A DNA stretch of 32,000 nt, taken from Halogeometricum borinquense DSM 11551. GTDB taxonomy: Archaea; Halobacteriota; Halobacteria; Halobacteriales; Haloferacaceae. Below, piece after piece: positions 9,648-32,000 of the stretch. A model generated the notes under the pieces. It had not been told where the DNA came from, did not search any database, and saw only the letters and a list, made by a program, of their open reading frames with translations. Both the position numbers and the translations under genes were made by a program. Every line of letters starts with the position of its first letter. Position 1 is the stretch's first letter. The DNA lies in the NCBI RefSeq assembly GCF_000172995.2, contig NC_014729.1, forward strand, positions 2,730,001 through 2,762,000. Reading direction: 5' to 3'.

Positions 9648-10643
9648 ATGATTTCGAAGGGCTGTGAGCAGTGCGCCATGGGAGGGAAAATGGTGCTGTT
9701 CGTCTACGGGTACTGCGATCAGCGCGATTGTTTCTACTGCCCCCTCGGCGAGAACCGTAAGAACGTCACAGACGTGTACGCTAACGAGCGATTGGTCGAG
9801 TCCGACGACGACGTTATCTCCGAGGCCAAGCGGATGGACGCGCTCGGCACGTCCATCACCGGCGGTGAACCGCAAGAGGCTCTCGATAAGACGTGTCACT
9901 ATCTCTCGCTTCTGAAAGACGAGTTCGGAGAGGACCACCACACGCACCTCTACACGGGTATCACGGGCGGCCGCGAGAACATGCGCCGCCTTTCGGAGGC
10001 GGGACTGGACGAGATTCGCTTCCACCCGCCGTACGAACTGTGGGGCGACATGCACGGAACCGAGTGGGAAGAGATACTCTATATTGCCCGCGAGGAAGGT
10101 CTCACGCCCGCGTTCGAGATTCCCGGCATCCGGGCCGAACAGGAGTTCCTCGACTTCCTCGACGAGGGAGCCGCGGAGTTCTGTAACGTCAACGAGTTCG
10201 AGATGAGCGACGGCAACTACCGCCGGATGCAGGAGGAAGGCTTCGAACTCCAAGACGGGCACATGTCGGCCGTTGACGGATCCAAGGACGCTATTCTCGA
10301 CGCGATGGCCGACCACGAACGCGTCTACTTCTGTACCTCTGTCTTCAAAGATGCCGCCCAACACCGCAACCGCCTGAAGCGGATGGCGAAGAACATCCGT
10401 CGTCCGTTCGATGAAGTAACCGACGACGGCACCCTCGTCTACGGGAAAACGTGGGTTACAGAGGACGATTTGCAGGCACTTGGCGTTCCCGAGGAGTTCT
10501 ACACCGTGAAATCCGACCACGTTGAAGTCGCGTGGTGGCTGCTAGAGGAAATGATAGAGGAAGGTGACGTGCCGGAGGGTGAAATCGTCGAGCAGTATCC
10601 CACCGTTAACGGGACTGTCGTCGAACGTACTCCGTTGGCCTGA
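9648..10643 (+). CDS. Radical SAM protein (archaeal COG2108-type)
   Basis: Internal ATG (MISKGCEQCAMGGKMVLFVYGYCDQRDCFYCPLGENRKN). It has a Cys-rich N-terminus with a CxxxCxxC-like cluster plus GGEP. The upstream part of the track ORF is basic and unlikely to be coding. Confidence 0.85.
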   Translation: MISKGCEQCAMGGKMVLFVYGYCDQRDCFYCPLGENRKNVTDVYANERLVESDDDVISEAKRMDALGTSITGGEPQEALDKTCHYLSLLKDEFGEDHHTHLYTGITGGRENMRRLSEAGLDEIRFHPPYELWGDMHGTEWEEILYIAREEGLTPAFEIPGIRAEQEFLDFLDEGAAEFCNVNEFEMSDGNYRRMQEEGFELQDGHMSAVDGSKDAILDAMADHERVYFCTSVFKDAAQHRNRLKRMAKNIRRPFDEVTDDGTLVYGKTWVTEDDLQALGVPEEFYTVKSDHVEVAWWLLEEMIEEGDVPEGEIVEQYPTVNGTVVERTPLA

Positions 10644-20620: not shown

Positions 20621-20694
20621 GTCCGGGTTAGGGTAGTGGACTATCCTTCAGCCTTGTGGAGGCTGAGACGCGGGTTCAATTCTCGCACCCGGAC
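20621..20694 (+). tRNA. tRNA-His (anticodon GTG)
   Basis: Cloverleaf folded by hand. Acceptor TCCGGGT/ACCCGGA with an encoded G-1 opposite discriminator C73 (the tRNA-His hallmark). Anticodon arm CAGCC-TTGTGGA-GGCTG and T arm GCGGG-TTCAATT-CTCGC. Confidence 0.9.
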
Positions 20695-21062
20695 CTTTCT
20701 ATCTGCGAACAACGTGAGCAGACGAACGTCTGTCGTGTGAGATTGAACCAGCGAGCAACTGACTGAAACGAGGTTGTGAGTAAGGGTCAAGGCTCGTACT
20801 CAGACCTTCTCGCAGAACACGGTTCCTCACGAGCGTTCGCTCCGTTAAGAGCAGTACGAGTGAACGACGACGCGGCAAGGGAACAAATCGCCCGTATACT
20901 TGCCTAACACGGCCGCTATGTCGGGTATCAACGATAGTCACGATGAGTATAGTACTGCCAACTAGCAGAGGCTATATGTATATACAGTAATTGTTAGTCA
21001 ATAACACACATAGACACTGCTGTCGAAACACGTGCCAAAGGCACGGTGGGGGCACACAGCAG

Positions 21063-28392: not shown

Positions 28393-28465
28393 GGGACCGT
28401 GGGTTAGCCTGGTATACTTCGGGCCTTGGGTGCCCGTGACCCCGGTTCAAATCCGGGCGGTCCCA
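28393..28465 (+). tRNA. tRNA-Pro (anticodon TGG)
   Basis: Folded by hand. Acceptor GGGACCG/CGGTCCC plus discriminator A, anticodon arm CGGGC-CTTGGGT-GCCCG, and T arm CCCGG-TTCAAAT-CCGGG. Confidence 0.9.
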
Positions 28466-28470
28466 TCGAG

Positions 28471-28479
28471 TATATAAAA
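28471..28479 (+). promoter_or_regulatory. TATA-like box (tatataaaa) upstream of the three-gene operon
   Basis: It lies 6 nt after the tRNA-Pro end and about 45 nt upstream of GTG 28524. An 8-bp-stem hairpin (aaagaacc-N13-ggttcttt, 28477-28505) lies in between. Confidence 0.3.
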
Positions 28480-28523
28480 GAACCAGCGTATTCTGCCGGT
28501 TCTTTCTCACCCTCTCAGCGGAG

Positions 28524-29000
28524 GTGCTGCGCGTGAGCCTCGCGCCATCCAAGCGCGGGGGAAACGCCGCTGAATCCGCCGTTCACCAACTTGTTGACGG
28601 CCTCCGATACGTTCCGGACTCGGAAGCCGAACACTACGACGCCGAAGTTGTCGAACTCCTTTCACCGAGTGCTGACCTTCCGTTCGTCGGCATCTGTCTC
28701 CTCGAGGTCGGCGTCGCTGTCGAAATCAAGAGCGCCATGGCCGTCTACGGCCAAGCCCAGCGCCGCGGCCGCTTCCTCATCCGCCAATCCCAACACGAGC
28801 ACCTGCTCGACGTCGGTGGCGTCTATCTCTTCGCCGTCTGCGAGCCCACGCCAGCGCGCGACGTCATCTCGATGAAGGTCGTTCCCGCGAGCCTCGTCGA
28901 TGAACTCGAGTTCTCGTGGGTCGGCCGCGACACCCGCGCACCGTACGCGCAGTTCGCCTGGAGTCGCATCTTTGTCCCCGAGGAGGTCGAAGAGCGATGA
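28524..29000 (+). CDS. PD-(D/E)xK-like nuclease-fold protein (Hjc/restriction-endonuclease-like), hypothetical
   Basis: GTG start. SKRGGNAAESAVHQLV (G...E helix), then SADLPFVG (Asp), then VAVEIKS (E-x-K), then RFLIRQSQHEHL. The order and spacing fit the PD-(D/E)xK core. The assignment rests on motifs only. Confidence 0.55.
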   Translation: MLRVSLAPSKRGGNAAESAVHQLVDGLRYVPDSEAEHYDAEVVELLSPSADLPFVGICLLEVGVAVEIKSAMAVYGQAQRRGRFLIRQSQHEHLLDVGGVYLFAVCEPTPARDVISMKVVPASLVDELEFSWVGRDTRAPYAQFAWSRIFVPEEVEER

Positions 29001-29557
29001 TACGCGAGACCTACTTCTCCGCCCTCTCGAACCGAGACATCGTTCCCGGAGACAGTGCGAAGGTCTTCGCGGTCGTCTCAGATCTTCCCGAGTGGGCCGA
29101 GGAACTCGTTGATCGCAATATCCCCGCTCTCGCGCCGCCCGAGGACCTCCTCGAGGCCCGCTCGCGTATCGAAGACGCCGCCAAGCAGAACGACGAGGAC
29201 GATCCCGAGGCTGTCGCGTGGCGCTCTGTCGATTTCGAGGAGCGCTACCGCGCCCACGTCACGTCCGGTGGACGACACCAAGTCCTCGATTCCCTCGCTG
29301 AAACCGTCGAACAGCGAACAGTGTGGCTCGTCTCTTGGCGCGCACGCGCCAGTCTCGACCATCGGTCTATCGTCTTGGAAGAACTCCAACATCGGGCCGA
29401 TCTCGGACCATGTCCACCCCGTGATCACGAATGGGGCCGTGGCGTCGTTCCGACCGTCGTCGTCTGCCAACGCTGCGGCTACGGTTCGACGAGTCTCTCT
29501 ACCGGGCAGCTCGCCCAAGAGAATCTGAAACCGTACCTCGGAGGTGACGGACAGTGA
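28997..29557 (+). CDS. DUF488-like protein with a C-terminal Cys/His knuckle, hypothetical
   Basis: The ATG overlaps the upstream stop (ATGA). LAPPEDLLEAR...VDFEERYRAHV...VLDSLAETVEQRTVWLVS...DHRSIVLEEL resembles the DUF488 pattern (LAPS.eL...w.eF...Y..el...L..L...tLlC...ChR..la..L) with the usual Cys replaced. The tail is CPPRDH-x14-CQRC. Confidence 0.45.
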   Translation: MIRETYFSALSNRDIVPGDSAKVFAVVSDLPEWAEELVDRNIPALAPPEDLLEARSRIEDAAKQNDEDDPEAVAWRSVDFEERYRAHVTSGGRHQVLDSLAETVEQRTVWLVSWRARASLDHRSIVLEELQHRADLGPCPPRDHEWGRGVVPTVVVCQRCGYGSTSLSTGQLAQENLKPYLGGDGQ

Positions 29558-31689
29558 CCGAGGATGTCGATCCGTTCGACGCCCTCGAGGAGGCCGAAGC
29601 CGTCACCTCCGACGACCAAGACCCTGTCACCAACACCGTCGAGAACACGAAAGCCGACCGACTACGCGCGAGTGCCGGCACCGACGGTGCCGACCTCGAG
29701 TCCGATACCGACGGACGATCCAAAGACCCGCTCTCGAAGTTCGTCGCCGAGTGTCGATGGTGCCGCGTCGGATTCGAGAGCAAAGAAGCCGCGCACGCAC
29801 ACGAGGACTGCTCGAAAGAACCCGTCTCAGTCTGTCGCTTCTGTGGTGAAGAACACACTCCGCGCGATGATCCGGAAGACCACCTCTACGGGTGCGACGA
29901 ATACCAGCGCTACCGAGAGAAGCAGATTCGGAACTCGCGGGCCGGAACGATGCGTGGCGGTGACGGGCTCGGTATCCGCCAGTTCATCGACGGACAACCG
30001 CACGAGTTCTCCGCGTACCTCAAGTACGACAACGCGCTGAGTACGTACTTCGGTCTCGTCTCCCTGTACAAAATGCACGATTTCGAGGAGTACGGCCAAC
30101 TTCGCGCTGGCCTCGAATTCGACGACAAGGACTGGAACCTCGAATTCGGCTACAAATCGTGCGGCCTCGCACCACCGGACGACGATACTGACCTCGGGCG
30201 ATGGGACTGGCGTCTCGACGATCCGCTCGAATTCCGGATCTACGTCTACCCCAGCGCGTACGATAGTTACCAAGACGCGAAAGACGAGAACCGCCAACGC
30301 GTCTACTACCGCGTCTCTCCCCGGTGGTCCGACATGGAGTCGGTAAACGGGAAGTCATTCTCGAACCCGCACGATCTCCTGGGCGTAGACATCGAAGTTG
30401 ATGGAAGCTACTTCGAGTTCGATCAGTACGCCGACGTCCTCTACCAAGCACTCGACGTCCTTCGAGATCGGCAACAAGAGTTCGGATGGAATTCCTACAC
30501 TGCTATCGACGCAGACGCGTGCCATCCCGAGGAGACTCACGAGTCCTCGAACGTCATCGACGCGGAGTACTACGTGCGCGTGAAGAAAGAACTCACCGGG
30601 AAGGTCTACGCGTTCGACGGGACGCTTCACCGTATTTCGATGCTTCTCGGCCGCGAGCGCAGCGGCTACTCGAAGACAGTCCGTGACGACCGGAAGTGCG
30701 AAGGGCACTATCACACGGCCACAATAGGCGCGATGCGCGCGGCCGCGTTGGTCGGCGGTCACGAACTCCCGAAGGAGTTCAAGCACTACCACGTCAAGGA
30801 ACCCGACGCTGTCGAAGGAACGGTTCTCGAGAACCCGAAAATGGGCGTGTCCTTCCAGCACGGCCTCTATGATGACACGCTGTACTGGGACGATCTCGAC
30901 CGGCTGAAGCGAGAACTTGACGAGGGACTGTTGAACCTGCTTCAGTGGTCAGACCTGCCGATTACTCCGGACCACCAAGTGTTCGTGGCGGATGATTACT
31001 TCGCCGTAGAGGGCAGTCGGCGGTTCCGGAAGGTGATCGATGATCCGCTTCCGCGGATTGCTCAGCAGCAGGACGAAGAAGTGCGGCGCTTCGCTGTCGC
31101 TGGGAATCTCACGGAGACCGACGTCAACCTCGTTGATGAACTCCTGACTGACGGGGGGCACATCTCGCCTGCCGATCTCGCCGAACGGATCGGCGTCCAC
31201 ATCAACACCTGCTACAAGTCGCTGAAGCGACTGGGGAACATCGTCCAGCATGATTACGGGTCGGTCGAACTCGCCTCGAAGCACATCGCGCAGGGAGTCG
31301 TCGAACATATCGACTCCGCGCGGTCTGTCGTCGAGAACACGCTCGAGGAAGCGGCCGACGATCTCGTGCGTGCAGAGACGTTCGGTGACGATGATCCGTG
31401 GAGCCGGTGGCTCGATCACTACGTCGAAGACGTTGAAGAGGGAGCGGGAAGCGGGAACCGCGACGTTCTGGAGTTCGGGTGGAAGCCGAGTGACCGACAC
31501 GACGCGAAGCGACTCATCCGCGCGGGCGCGATGAAGTGGGCGGAAGTCGCGGGTGAGGATATGCCGCGATTTGCGAGGGAGTTTGAGGTTGAAATGACGC
31601 TCGCGGATAACTCACGGTTCAACCTCGACTGGAGAGCCTTGAAGAAACTCCTGCCACGGAACTACTCGCTGACGCCGTCGCACGGCTGA
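29554..31689 (+). CDS. Large (711 aa) acidic protein with two N-terminal zinc-finger-like motifs, a central domain of unknown function and a C-terminal wHTH; possible replication/recombination or defence effector protein
   Basis: The GTG overlaps the upstream stop (GTGA). The zinc-finger-like motifs are CRWC-x11-HAH and CRFC-x13-H-x3-C (29752-29895). The wHTH is ETDVNLVDELLTDGGHISPADLAERIGVHINTCYKSLKRLGNIVQHDYGSVEL (about 31111-31278). No Walker A motif is seen. Confidence 0.7.
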   Translation: MTEDVDPFDALEEAEAVTSDDQDPVTNTVENTKADRLRASAGTDGADLESDTDGRSKDPLSKFVAECRWCRVGFESKEAAHAHEDCSKEPVSVCRFCGEEHTPRDDPEDHLYGCDEYQRYREKQIRNSRAGTMRGGDGLGIRQFIDGQPHEFSAYLKYDNALSTYFGLVSLYKMHDFEEYGQLRAGLEFDDKDWNLEFGYKSCGLAPPDDDTDLGRWDWRLDDPLEFRIYVYPSAYDSYQDAKDENRQRVYYRVSPRWSDMESVNGKSFSNPHDLLGVDIEVDGSYFEFDQYADVLYQALDVLRDRQQEFGWNSYTAIDADACHPEETHESSNVIDAEYYVRVKKELTGKVYAFDGTLHRISMLLGRERSGYSKTVRDDRKCEGHYHTATIGAMRAAALVGGHELPKEFKHYHVKEPDAVEGTVLENPKMGVSFQHGLYDDTLYWDDLDRLKRELDEGLLNLLQWSDLPITPDHQVFVADDYFAVEGSRRFRKVIDDPLPRIAQQQDEEVRRFAVAGNLTETDVNLVDELLTDGGHISPADLAERIGVHINTCYKSLKRLGNIVQHDYGSVELASKHIAQGVVEHIDSARSVVENTLEEAADDLVRAETFGDDDPWSRWLDHYVEDVEEGAGSGNRDVLEFGWKPSDRHDAKRLIRAGAMKWAEVAGEDMPRFAREFEVEMTLADNSRFNLDWRALKKLLPRNYSLTPSHG

Positions 31690-31859
31690 GGCGGGGCCTC
31701 GTGAGTGGCAACACTATTCGTCGCCTGTTTTTGCGGTAATCATTTCTGCTTTTCTGCCGGTTCTGGTACTTGGCTGGAGGTTCTTGATCGGCATCGTCAT
31801 CGAGGCCGACGAGCGACTGCCTTCGAAACTGGCGGGGGTACCCCACTTGTCCGTTAGGG

Positions 31860-31879
31860 GTGTCGGTAAAGACCGACAC
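31860..31879. other. Perfect 8-bp-stem hairpin (gtgtcggt-aaag-accgacac)
   Basis: Read directly from the sequence. Nearby are the 10-bp palindrome ggggtacccc (31835-31844) and a second 8-bp-stem hairpin gccgcgcc-tactc-ggcgcggc (31941-31961). Confidence 0.5.
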
Positions 31880-32000
31880 GGACAGATTACCTCAGCCTTC
31901 GCTTCGCTCAGGCTTCAGATGAAACAGACGAAGCATGGTCGCCGCGCCTACTCGGCGCGGCTTGGCGCGTATTAGATGTAGTGTGAGCCGCCGTTTCCTT

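Follow-up and report, generated by a model that had tools for sequence, protein, structure and literature searches.

The best-described relative of the locus considered here is the replication module of SNJ2, a temperate pleolipovirus in which open reading frame (ORF) 19 encodes RepSNJ2, a protein that joins a DUF7845 domain to a helix-turn-helix of the winged type (wHTH). RepSNJ2 is the replication initiator, and it is sufficient for replication when 210 bp of the DNA downstream of its gene is supplied with it (Wang et al., NAR 2026, PMC13107129). Mutagenesis established that RepSNJ2 needs Y283, E25, E303, and G410, with the G410A change abolishing SNJ2 replication; a hairpin at nucleotides (nt) 176-197 downstream of the gene is essential, and single-stranded DNA (ssDNA) intermediates form (PMC13107129). 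The SNJ2 operon, int-orf26-orf25...orf19, exists only after excision, with the attachment site attP inside it and a start site mapped inside int, and every gene in it was scored as "essential" by nonsense mutations (PMC13107129). The same study named the initiator family Rep-Arvir, called ORF22 a putative endonuclease, and cited LSV-48N as a lemon-shaped virus that carries the family; LSV-48N persists continuously as both integrated and circular forms (PMC12714723). We compared with these systems one end of a 32,000-nt stretch of Halogeometricum borinquense DSM 11551 (contig NC_014729.1, positions 2,730,001 to 2,762,000; hereafter the window), in which three overlapping genes follow a tRNA-Pro gene. 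Positions 28466-32000 of the window are very probably the left (attL) end of an integrated element of ~30.6 kb, related to LSV-48N, with a replication module and mechanism of the SNJ2 type.

The three ORFs lie on the forward strand at 28524-29000, 28997-29557, and 29554-31689, and they overlap by 4 nt at ATGA (28997-29000) and GTGA (29554-29557). The first-pass annotation had described this arrangement, together with the preceding tRNA-Pro, a TATA-like box 6 nt beyond it, and a hairpin, and all of it was confirmed with one small correction to the start of ORF1 (28533). ORF3 (29554..31689, 711 aa) is assigned to the Rep-Arvir family of rolling-circle replication initiators by its DUF7845 domain, its PHROGs family, and its homologues. 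DUF7845 (PF25227) matches aa 144-486 at 343 bits, where the cut-off is 27 (E=2e-102), and positions 1-315 of the profile are fully covered; phrog_3288 matches at 2e-117. A tblastn search of a phage collection gave 61-64% identity to LSV-48N CDS0026 (64% in one run and 61% in another). Identity is 30-33% to SNJ2 ORF19/RepSNJ2 and to other betapleolipovirus proteins (the conserved "ORF9/ORF14/ORF19" protein), and homologues occur in HRPV-3, HGPV-1, SNJ2, HHPV3/4, and HRPV9-13. Relatives in a plasmid collection are located on Haloquadratum PL6 plasmids and on several megaplasmids. The three genes had previously been left without a match to any named system, a statement that no longer holds now that profile searches assign them to the Rep-Arvir module. 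The module is already known, because both the system, described in 2026, and this very protein (E4NLY6) are in the literature: Table S5 and Dataset S1 of PMC13107129 list WP_013440709.1/E4NLY6 from Halogeometricum borinquense DSM 11551 in an "IE" (integrative element). The E4NLY6 alignment row in that paper matches the window Rep over the stretch displayed.

Rep of the window begins with a pair of zinc-finger-like motifs, C67-x2-C70...H81-x-H83 and C94-x2-C97...H110-x3-C114 (aa 67-114; 29752..29895), found by sequence and alignment. The pair is confined to the LSV-48N-like clade, and RepSNJ2 is without it. A separate small zinc-ribbon ORF stands just 5' of the module in several relatives (numbered as loci in our comparison: L013, Haloferax mucosum, 9880-9983; L011, Hfx. 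gibbonsii, 9908-10000; L009, 8359-8628; L012, 8714-8950). The DUF7845 catalytic domain (29983..31011) contains E151, D336, and Y412, the last within the motif KHYHV and encoded at 30787-30789. Residue mapping to RepSNJ2 pairs E151 with E25, D336 with D207, K410-H411-Y412 with K281-H282-Y283, and D533-G534-G535 with D408-G409-G410; the K-H-Y and D-G-G triplets are invariant in a six-sequence alignment. What these residues do in RepSNJ2 was tested in PMC13107129. A TDGG linker precedes the MarR/AsnC-like wHTH (31108..31233), where HTH_AsnC-type and HTH_24 profiles match aa 519-560. The zinc-finger and wHTH modules recognised in the first reading of ORF3 thus both stand, and the roughly 400 aa that it had left unassigned are DUF7845.

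The DNA downstream of rep has the parts of an SNJ2-type origin. A post-stop motif, CTCGTGAGTGGCAACACTAT (31698..31717, +), is kept as far as SNJ2, where it is the first conserved motif past orf19, at nt 1-36 and near the operon termination site (PMC13107129); its core, GAGTGGCAAC, is invariant in an alignment of the window, LSV-48N, H. limi, Hfx. mucosum, and SNJ2. The predicted origin (nick-site) hairpin, GTGTCGG-TAAAGA-CCGACAC (31860..31879, +), is located 171-190 nt beyond the rep stop codon, and its counterpart in an alignment with SNJ2 is the hairpin GTGTGGCTAAGGCCA. For both the motif and the hairpin, the distance from the rep stop matches that in SNJ2. Folded as DNA, the hairpin reaches -9.2 kcal/mol (z = -3.7), and 0 of 200 shuffled sequences were as stable. 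The same hairpin is found 3' of rep at seven further loci, and its three inner stem pairs vary in a compensatory manner (CGG/CCG, GGC/GCC, GAG/CTC). Further 3' is a second conserved inverted repeat, GCCGCGCC-TACTC-GGCGCGGC (31941..31961, +), which is near-identical in the window, LSV-48N, H. limi, and Hfx. mucosum; its fold (-12.3 kcal/mol, z = -1.3) is unexceptional for its composition.

The other side of the module is bounded by the host tRNA-Pro(TGG) gene (28393..28465, +; ARAGORN), into the 3' end of which the element integrates. The final 22 nt of this gene form the attachment (att) core, GGTTCAAATCCGGGCGGTCCCA (28444..28465, +), and the attP region of LSV-48N reads ...CCGGGCGGTCCCA at the equivalent place, between the integrase and the ORF1 homologue. 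A second H. borinquense sequence, CP050274.1, has the same locus without disruption, with the three proteins 97-98% identical, and it includes the opposite end of the element. There an integrase 61% identical to that of LSV-48N is encoded ~30 kb downstream on the same strand, and an exact second copy of the 22-bp core lies ~180 nt past the integrase stop (L018:11206-11227), ~30.6 kb away from the first. The left end of this copy (L016) carries tRNA-Pro-ORF1-ORF2-Rep, and the right end (L018) carries the + strand integrase and the 22-bp core. With the direct repeats as its bounds, the element is therefore ~30.6 kb long, and the earlier suggestion that the tRNA 3' end is an integration site is borne out by the repeated core next to the integrase in the sister strain. 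The locus is accessory, as had been proposed. G+C content gives no difference between the window's host part (0.601) and the element (0.606). The exact ORF2 sequence is also present in the H. borinquense draft GCA_000337855.1 and in three sequencing-run assemblies; the draft DSM 11551 contig AOHT01000005.1 (L003) ends inside rep, at about window position 31594, and not at an att site.

Inside the element we found homologues of LSV-48N CDS0008, CDS0011, and CDS0012. Across the 7.9 kb downstream of rep, the LSV-48N ori region was the sole match in a DNA search of the phage collection, and a PHROGs search of the genes there returned almost nothing; comparison of proteins was required to reveal the kinship of these genes with LSV-48N. 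The H. borinquense element looks like a relative of LSV-48N, possibly a defective one, and not like an anonymous integrative element. Since a Rep-Arvir element occupies tRNA-Pro in the Halogeometricum window, in Hfx. mucosum, and in H. limi, with an identical tRNA-Pro immediately 5' of the rep homologues in the latter two, this tRNA is a recurrent target. In H. limi and Hfx. mucosum no second att copy was found within 12 kb downstream; either the elements there extend further, or their repeat is outside the DNA examined. The tRNA-His and tRNA-Pro(TGG) genes are spaced ~8 kb apart both in the window (20622-20695 and 28393-28465) and in Hfx. mucosum (L013 1379-1452 and 9748-9820).

Other features of the att regions were observed along the way. 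About 100 nt past attR, L018 11319-11337 holds a degenerate second att-like sequence, ATCCGGGCAGTTCCAC, which may be the scar of an earlier integration at the same tRNA. Just beyond attR there is also an ~80-bp tandem duplication (GGCATCACGTCATATATTGTCATAGGAG...CACGCGGAGGTGCCACGT; L018 11590-11760). When attP is reconstructed from L018:11120-11227 and window 28466-28536, an ORF of ~53 aa crosses the junction, its TGA overlapping the ORF1 GTG at 28533 (GTGA), and LSV-48N has an unannotated 56-aa ORF at the same junction (L001 20726-20905, -). The two junction ORFs are reminiscent of SNJ2 orf26; they run in different frames across the core, which makes their coding doubtful. In Hfx. gibbonsii (L011 9725-9905) the tRNA-Thr 3' end, leader, and hairpin are tandemly doubled, with N between the copies, and this is either an assembly artefact or a genuine duplication.

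These features can be assembled into the following mechanism, modelled on SNJ2. The tyrosine integrase encoded at the far end would insert the element, in its circular form, into the final 22 nt of tRNA-Pro(TGG) and leave the tRNA intact. In the integrated state, int at the right end would read outward to attR, with ORF1-ORF2-Rep and the origin 30 kb away at the left. As the integrase reads toward attR and ORF1-ORF2-Rep-ori starts at attL, excision would rebuild a co-oriented int-attP-ORF1-ORF2-Rep-ori, and if transcription starts inside int as in SNJ2, Rep would be made only after excision. The wHTH of Rep would then bind near the hairpin ~170-190 nt past the rep stop, and Tyr412 of DUF7845 would nick that hairpin, from which rolling-circle replication could begin. 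ORF1 and ORF2 are regarded as accessory because several relatives lack both; as translationally coupled accessories they may aid stable maintenance or efficient replication while being dispensable for initiation. We infer the excision-dependent expression, the nicking by Tyr412, and the rolling-circle mode from the SNJ2 experiments. The suggestion in the first-pass annotation that the genes could be a replication or maintenance module of an integrated provirus is right and can be given a name, the att-proximal half of a Rep-Arvir operon of the SNJ2/LSV-48N type.

The short leader between the att core and ORF1 bears on how this operon may be expressed. It contains the TATA-like box, TATATAAAA (28471..28479, +), which begins 6 nt past the tRNA end on the element side of the att core and may be a promoter. 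The sequence GTATATAA is retained in LSV-48N and Hfx. mucosum, and H. limi has the version TTAAAA; the box is absent from the tRNA-Thr-associated relative and from relatives at other tRNAs. The box is followed by a GC-rich hairpin, GAACCAGC-gtattct-GCCGGTTC (28480..28502, +), with a T-rich run after it. Folded as DNA the hairpin reaches -7.9 kcal/mol (z = -2.4), and 4 of 200 shuffles were equally stable. Counterpart hairpins with other stem sequences but with the pairing kept are present in LSV-48N, Hfx. mucosum, H. limi, Hfx. gibbonsii, and Hfx. marisrubri. The hairpin might be a terminator-like insulator of rep against read-through from the tRNA, or a recombinase arm site. A hairpin with a T-run between the att core and the first gene was seen at elements in different tRNAs (window 28480-28509; LSV-48N, L001 ~20745-20785, -; L013 9838-9870; L011 9780-9810; L012 8550-8580).

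Several points weigh against the proposal of an SNJ2-type module in an LSV-48N-related element. The window itself holds attL only, and attR and the integrase were observed in the sister strain CP050274.1. The TATA-like box after the att core could drive the three genes independently of excision, unlike in SNJ2, and the hairpin and T-run between attP and ORF1 look like a terminator and, if they are one, would hinder read-through from int as well. In CP050274.1 the homologue of the 904-aa CDS0012 is in three abutting ORFs of 415, 177, and 476 aa in which no genes were called (L016 16667-19804, -); since it is in three pieces, the element may be defective and CDS0012 may be a pseudogene. E303, essential in SNJ2, corresponds to G431 in the window Rep and in its four closest aligned relatives, a replacement by Gly that occurs likewise in HGPV1 and HRPV3 and for which a compensating residue elsewhere has been proposed (PMC13107129). 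The TATA-binding protein (TBP)-like fold reported for Rep-Arvir proteins in PMC13107129 would extend to the window Rep by analogy. Lastly, ssDNA intermediates have been shown for SNJ2, but nicking in vitro has been shown for no Rep-Arvir protein (PMC13107129).

ORF1 encodes a small PD-(D/E)xK nuclease (PF25941, PDDEXK_16) that is homologous to SNJ2 ORF22. Its start is most probably the in-frame GTG at 28533 (28533..29000, +; 155 aa) and not the alternative upstream GTG at 28524, because a GGAGGTG motif (28520-28526) lies 6 nt upstream and because the annotated starts in LSV-48N and in the NCBI H. borinquense protein agree with it. ORF2 and ORF3 have GGAGG-type motifs 7-9 nt ahead of their starts. 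ORF1 matches phrog_2095 at 5e-17 and is 57% identical to its homologue in HRPV-9, 46-47% to LSV-48N CDS0029, and 39.5% to SNJ2 ORF22. PF25941 is precomputed on all of its ~150 database relatives and is known to us from these precomputed annotations only, as local scans of Pfam-A (even at E<=10) and NCBIfam gave no family for ORF1. This mismatch between the local Pfam-A scan and the precomputed annotation is a library or version discrepancy. The E / D / E-x-K succession that had been noticed at the outset proved to be a family trait: across 59 aligned members D39 and K69 are invariant, and E17 and E67 are present in at least 90%. An AlphaFold2 model (predicted local distance difference test score, pLDDT, 93; predicted template modelling score, pTM, 0.89) has a restriction-endonuclease-like alpha/beta fold. 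The top Foldseek matches of this model in the PDB are all PD-(D/E)xK nucleases, led by NhoI (E=5.5e-4) and followed by D212 of the fusellovirus SSV1, the SPARDA nuclease, and DpnI.

ORF2 (28997..29557, +) is a DUF488-related accessory protein, homologous to SNJ2 ORF21, with a C/H/CxxC motif at its C-terminus. The Pfam DUF488-N3a model gives 26.9 bits, just under its cut-off of 27.0; PF22751 is found on homologues at 31-48% identity, and PF04343 on most of them too. The protein belongs to phrog_2450, and its identity is ~49-50% to LSV-48N CDS0028 and 42% to SNJ2 ORF21. It had been described as resembling DUF488 without the usual Cys, and the alignment agrees: WLVSWR...DHRS stands in place of the WLVCWE...CHRR of the nearest DUF488 relatives. 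These cysteines are lost also in LSV-48N, Hfx. chudinovii, and Hfx. marisrubri, and are retained in SNJ2 ORF21 and Halobellus rarus. ORF2 probably has a DUF488 fold, judging from sequence; its AlphaFold2 model has a pLDDT of 78, and a Foldseek search of the PDB with it gave nothing significant (best E = 0.45). A literature search on DUF488 gave nothing on function apart from an archaeal fusion of DUF488 to a ParB-CTPase fold.

The genomic contexts of relatives show which parts of the module stay together. Each of the seven chromosomal Rep relatives whose context is available has a tRNA gene 60-1900 bp upstream on its own strand: Pro-TGG in two cases, Thr in two, and Pro-GGG, Arg, and Ile in one each. 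The gene order of the window, with its 4-nt overlaps, recurs in LSV-48N, Halobellus rarus, and Hfx. chudinovii, and the order recurs in Hfx. marisrubri and, with an additional methylase gene, in Hfx. mediterranei, so the co-occurrence that the first-pass annotation had asked about is found. ORF1, ORF2, and Rep are nevertheless not an obligate unit, as four of nine related elements have rep without ORF1 and ORF2. The gene content between tRNA and rep varies. H. limi and Halopenitus persicus have no gene there, and Hfx. mucosum and Hfx. gibbonsii have a single small zinc-ribbon ORF; the window shares ORF1 and ORF2 with Hfx. chudinovii, Hfx. marisrubri, and Halobellus rarus; and LSV-48N and Hfx. 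mediterranei have a methylase in addition to these two genes. In a small random sample of four distant PF25941 genes, each has a DUF7845 gene one or two genes further downstream, and the gene between nuclease and rep varies (a 186-aa DUF488-like protein, or a protein of 97 or 145 aa). From this sample and the gene counts we conclude that the link between nuclease and rep is strong, that the middle gene is variable, and that both small genes are dispensable in some elements. Stoichiometric co-expression of ORF1, ORF2, and Rep, which the overlaps had been taken to imply, is plausible.

In H. limi (L008 12537-22136) a rep 80% identical to that of the window is located at the same tRNA-Pro, and the cargo is different, with an HNH-associated repeat protein and two weak similarities, one to a FokI cleavage domain and the other to a Zot-type ATPase. 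Because the cargo after rep differs, this locus speaks for mobility of the rep module: unrelated elements seem to exchange the rep-ori cassette.

What the two small proteins do can be read in more than one way. ORF1 and ORF2 could be a putative selfish stabilisation (toxin-antitoxin/addiction) or anti-host module riding in the rep operon, and a stabilisation or addiction role was suggested for ORF22 and ORF26 by the SNJ2 authors (PMC13107129). We consider this a genuine, if minority, possibility: RepSNJ2 with nothing but ori is able to replicate, yet it lacks stability when the other genes are missing (PMC13107129), the relatives that lack both genes and the variable gene ahead of rep would suit a rider, and so would the loss of the DUF488 cysteines from ORF2. 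However, the nuclease gene is just upstream of rep in every sampled context, in distant genera, a pattern that a functional partnership with Rep fits at least equally well, and the tailed virus HHTV-1, in which the search with the Rep protein matched nothing, has an ORF1 relative. Such a partnership, in which the PF25941 nuclease would be dedicated to Rep-Arvir and would act on replication intermediates together with the degenerate DUF488 protein of this clade, is conceivable though rather doubtful. Its acts might include termination or resolution, second-strand processing, or cleavage of host copies. The position of the gene and its translational coupling favour it, and the elements with rep and no nuclease do not. 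The "essential" result in SNJ2 does not separate the two views, because, as we infer, a nonsense mutation can have polar effects on rep when the genes are translationally coupled.

The excision-dependent expression proposed above has its own rival. In this clade the operon might be unsplit, with the TATA-like box driving ORF1-ORF2-Rep in the integrated state too, as would suit a chronic lifestyle like that of LSV-48N. The box is close to the tRNA end and conserved in LSV-48N and Hfx. mucosum, its distance to the start suits a short leader with GGAGGTG, and LSV-48N coexists in integrated and circular form (PMC12714723). We hold this to be unlikely, since the box is missing from relatives at other tRNAs, the SNJ2 operon start was mapped inside int (PMC13107129), and the sequence may merely belong to the arm of attP.

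It is more improbable that the element is a decaying remnant whose three genes no longer function, a reading to which the CDS0012 homologue in three frames of CP050274.1, with no genes called, and its classification as "IE" and not as provirus (PMC13107129) would lend themselves; against it, all three ORFs are intact and 97-98% identical between two strains, and no damage is seen in the catalytic residues, the ori hairpin, either att copy, or the integrase. The other option raised at the outset, an anti-virus or anti-plasmid defence system in a tRNA-hotspot island, in which the nuclease would be the effector, the small protein an adaptor, and the DNA-binding protein a sensor, can be set aside as highly improbable: many defence operons are laid out in a similar way, ORF1 finds its best structural matches in restriction endonucleases and the SPARDA nuclease domain, and LSV-48N and Hfx. 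mediterranei have a Dam-type methylase inside the operon, but a PADLOC scan (PADLOC-DB 2.0) of the three proteins at E<=1 was empty, all three are in virus protein families (PHROGs) and in virus genomes, the large protein belongs to a genetically validated initiator family with a catalytic Tyr and an origin hairpin, the module is at the att end of an integrase-bounded element, and the nuclease gene is one or two genes upstream of a DUF7845 rep wherever it was sampled.

With the assignment to an SNJ2-type module, the annotation "hypothetical protein / Lrp-AsnC regulator" can be replaced by a nuclease, an accessory protein, a Rep-Arvir initiator, and the origin of an integrated virus-like element, and the H. 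borinquense element is given defined ends, a 22-bp att core, and a length of ~30.6 kb. The split replication operon described for SNJ2 has here a further natural example, in an LSV-48N-related element. The rep and ori segment could be a vector replicon for Halogeometricum or Haloferax, and if the nuclease does act as a partner of Rep, a second enzyme would be added to archaeal rolling-circle replication.

Compared with known systems, ORF1 is alike in structure to the restriction endonuclease NhoI (8RPX; template modelling score 0.49 to the ORF1 model) and to SSV1 D212 (2W8M), and it carries the E...D...ExK signature, whereas identity to them is only ~14%. The ORF1 family PF25941 is tied to rep operons and not to restriction-modification systems, and ORF1 gives no sign of sequence or methylation specificity. 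The bacterial Rep_trans initiators (RepD/RepDE of pT181-type plasmids, PDB 4CWC) resemble Rep-Arvir in the TBP-like fold of the catalytic domain, in a catalytic Tyr accompanied by acidic metal ligands, and in an origin of two parts, a bind site and a nick hairpin (PMC13107129). There is no detectable sequence similarity between the two, and Rep-Arvir is fused to a MarR-like wHTH and is exclusive to archaea.

The likeness to SNJ2 is in the order and organisation of the module. SNJ2 ORF22, ORF21, and ORF19 are homologues of ORF1, ORF2, and ORF3 in the same order, and in both cases the module is at the att end opposite the integrase, is compact with overlaps, and is followed by the post-stop motif and by an origin hairpin ~170-200 nt downstream. 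The integration target of SNJ2 is not stated in the text and supplements of PMC13107129 as searched. The SNJ2 operon reads int-orf26-orf25...orf22-orf21-orf20-orf19, whereas the window is without counterparts of orf20 and orf23-25, and identity is only 30-42%. The window Rep differs from RepSNJ2 in an extra N-terminal zinc-finger region of ~140 aa and in the Gly at the place of E303, and the DUF488 cysteines still present in SNJ2 ORF21 are lost from ORF2. Beyond the module, the H. borinquense element resembles LSV-48N and not a pleolipovirus.

The Haloferax virus LSV-48N (PP151251.1; PMC12714723) is the closest sequenced virus, with the corresponding genes CDS0030 (integrase), CDS0029, CDS0028, CDS0027, and CDS0026. 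It differs from the window in the Dam-type methylase between the ORF2 homologue and Rep, and from the sister-strain element in CDS0012, the homologue of which is fragmented and on the opposite strand relative to rep; outside the module and ori, the two have no similarity at the DNA level. The deposited sequence of LSV-48N is circular and joins in one run what excision would join in H. borinquense: the integrase, ...CCGGGCGGTCCCA, the same TATA-like box, a hairpin, and the homologous genes with their 4-nt overlaps. The two also share the conserved region past rep, including the ori hairpin, and CDS0008, CDS0011, CDS0012, and the integrase all have homologues in the element.

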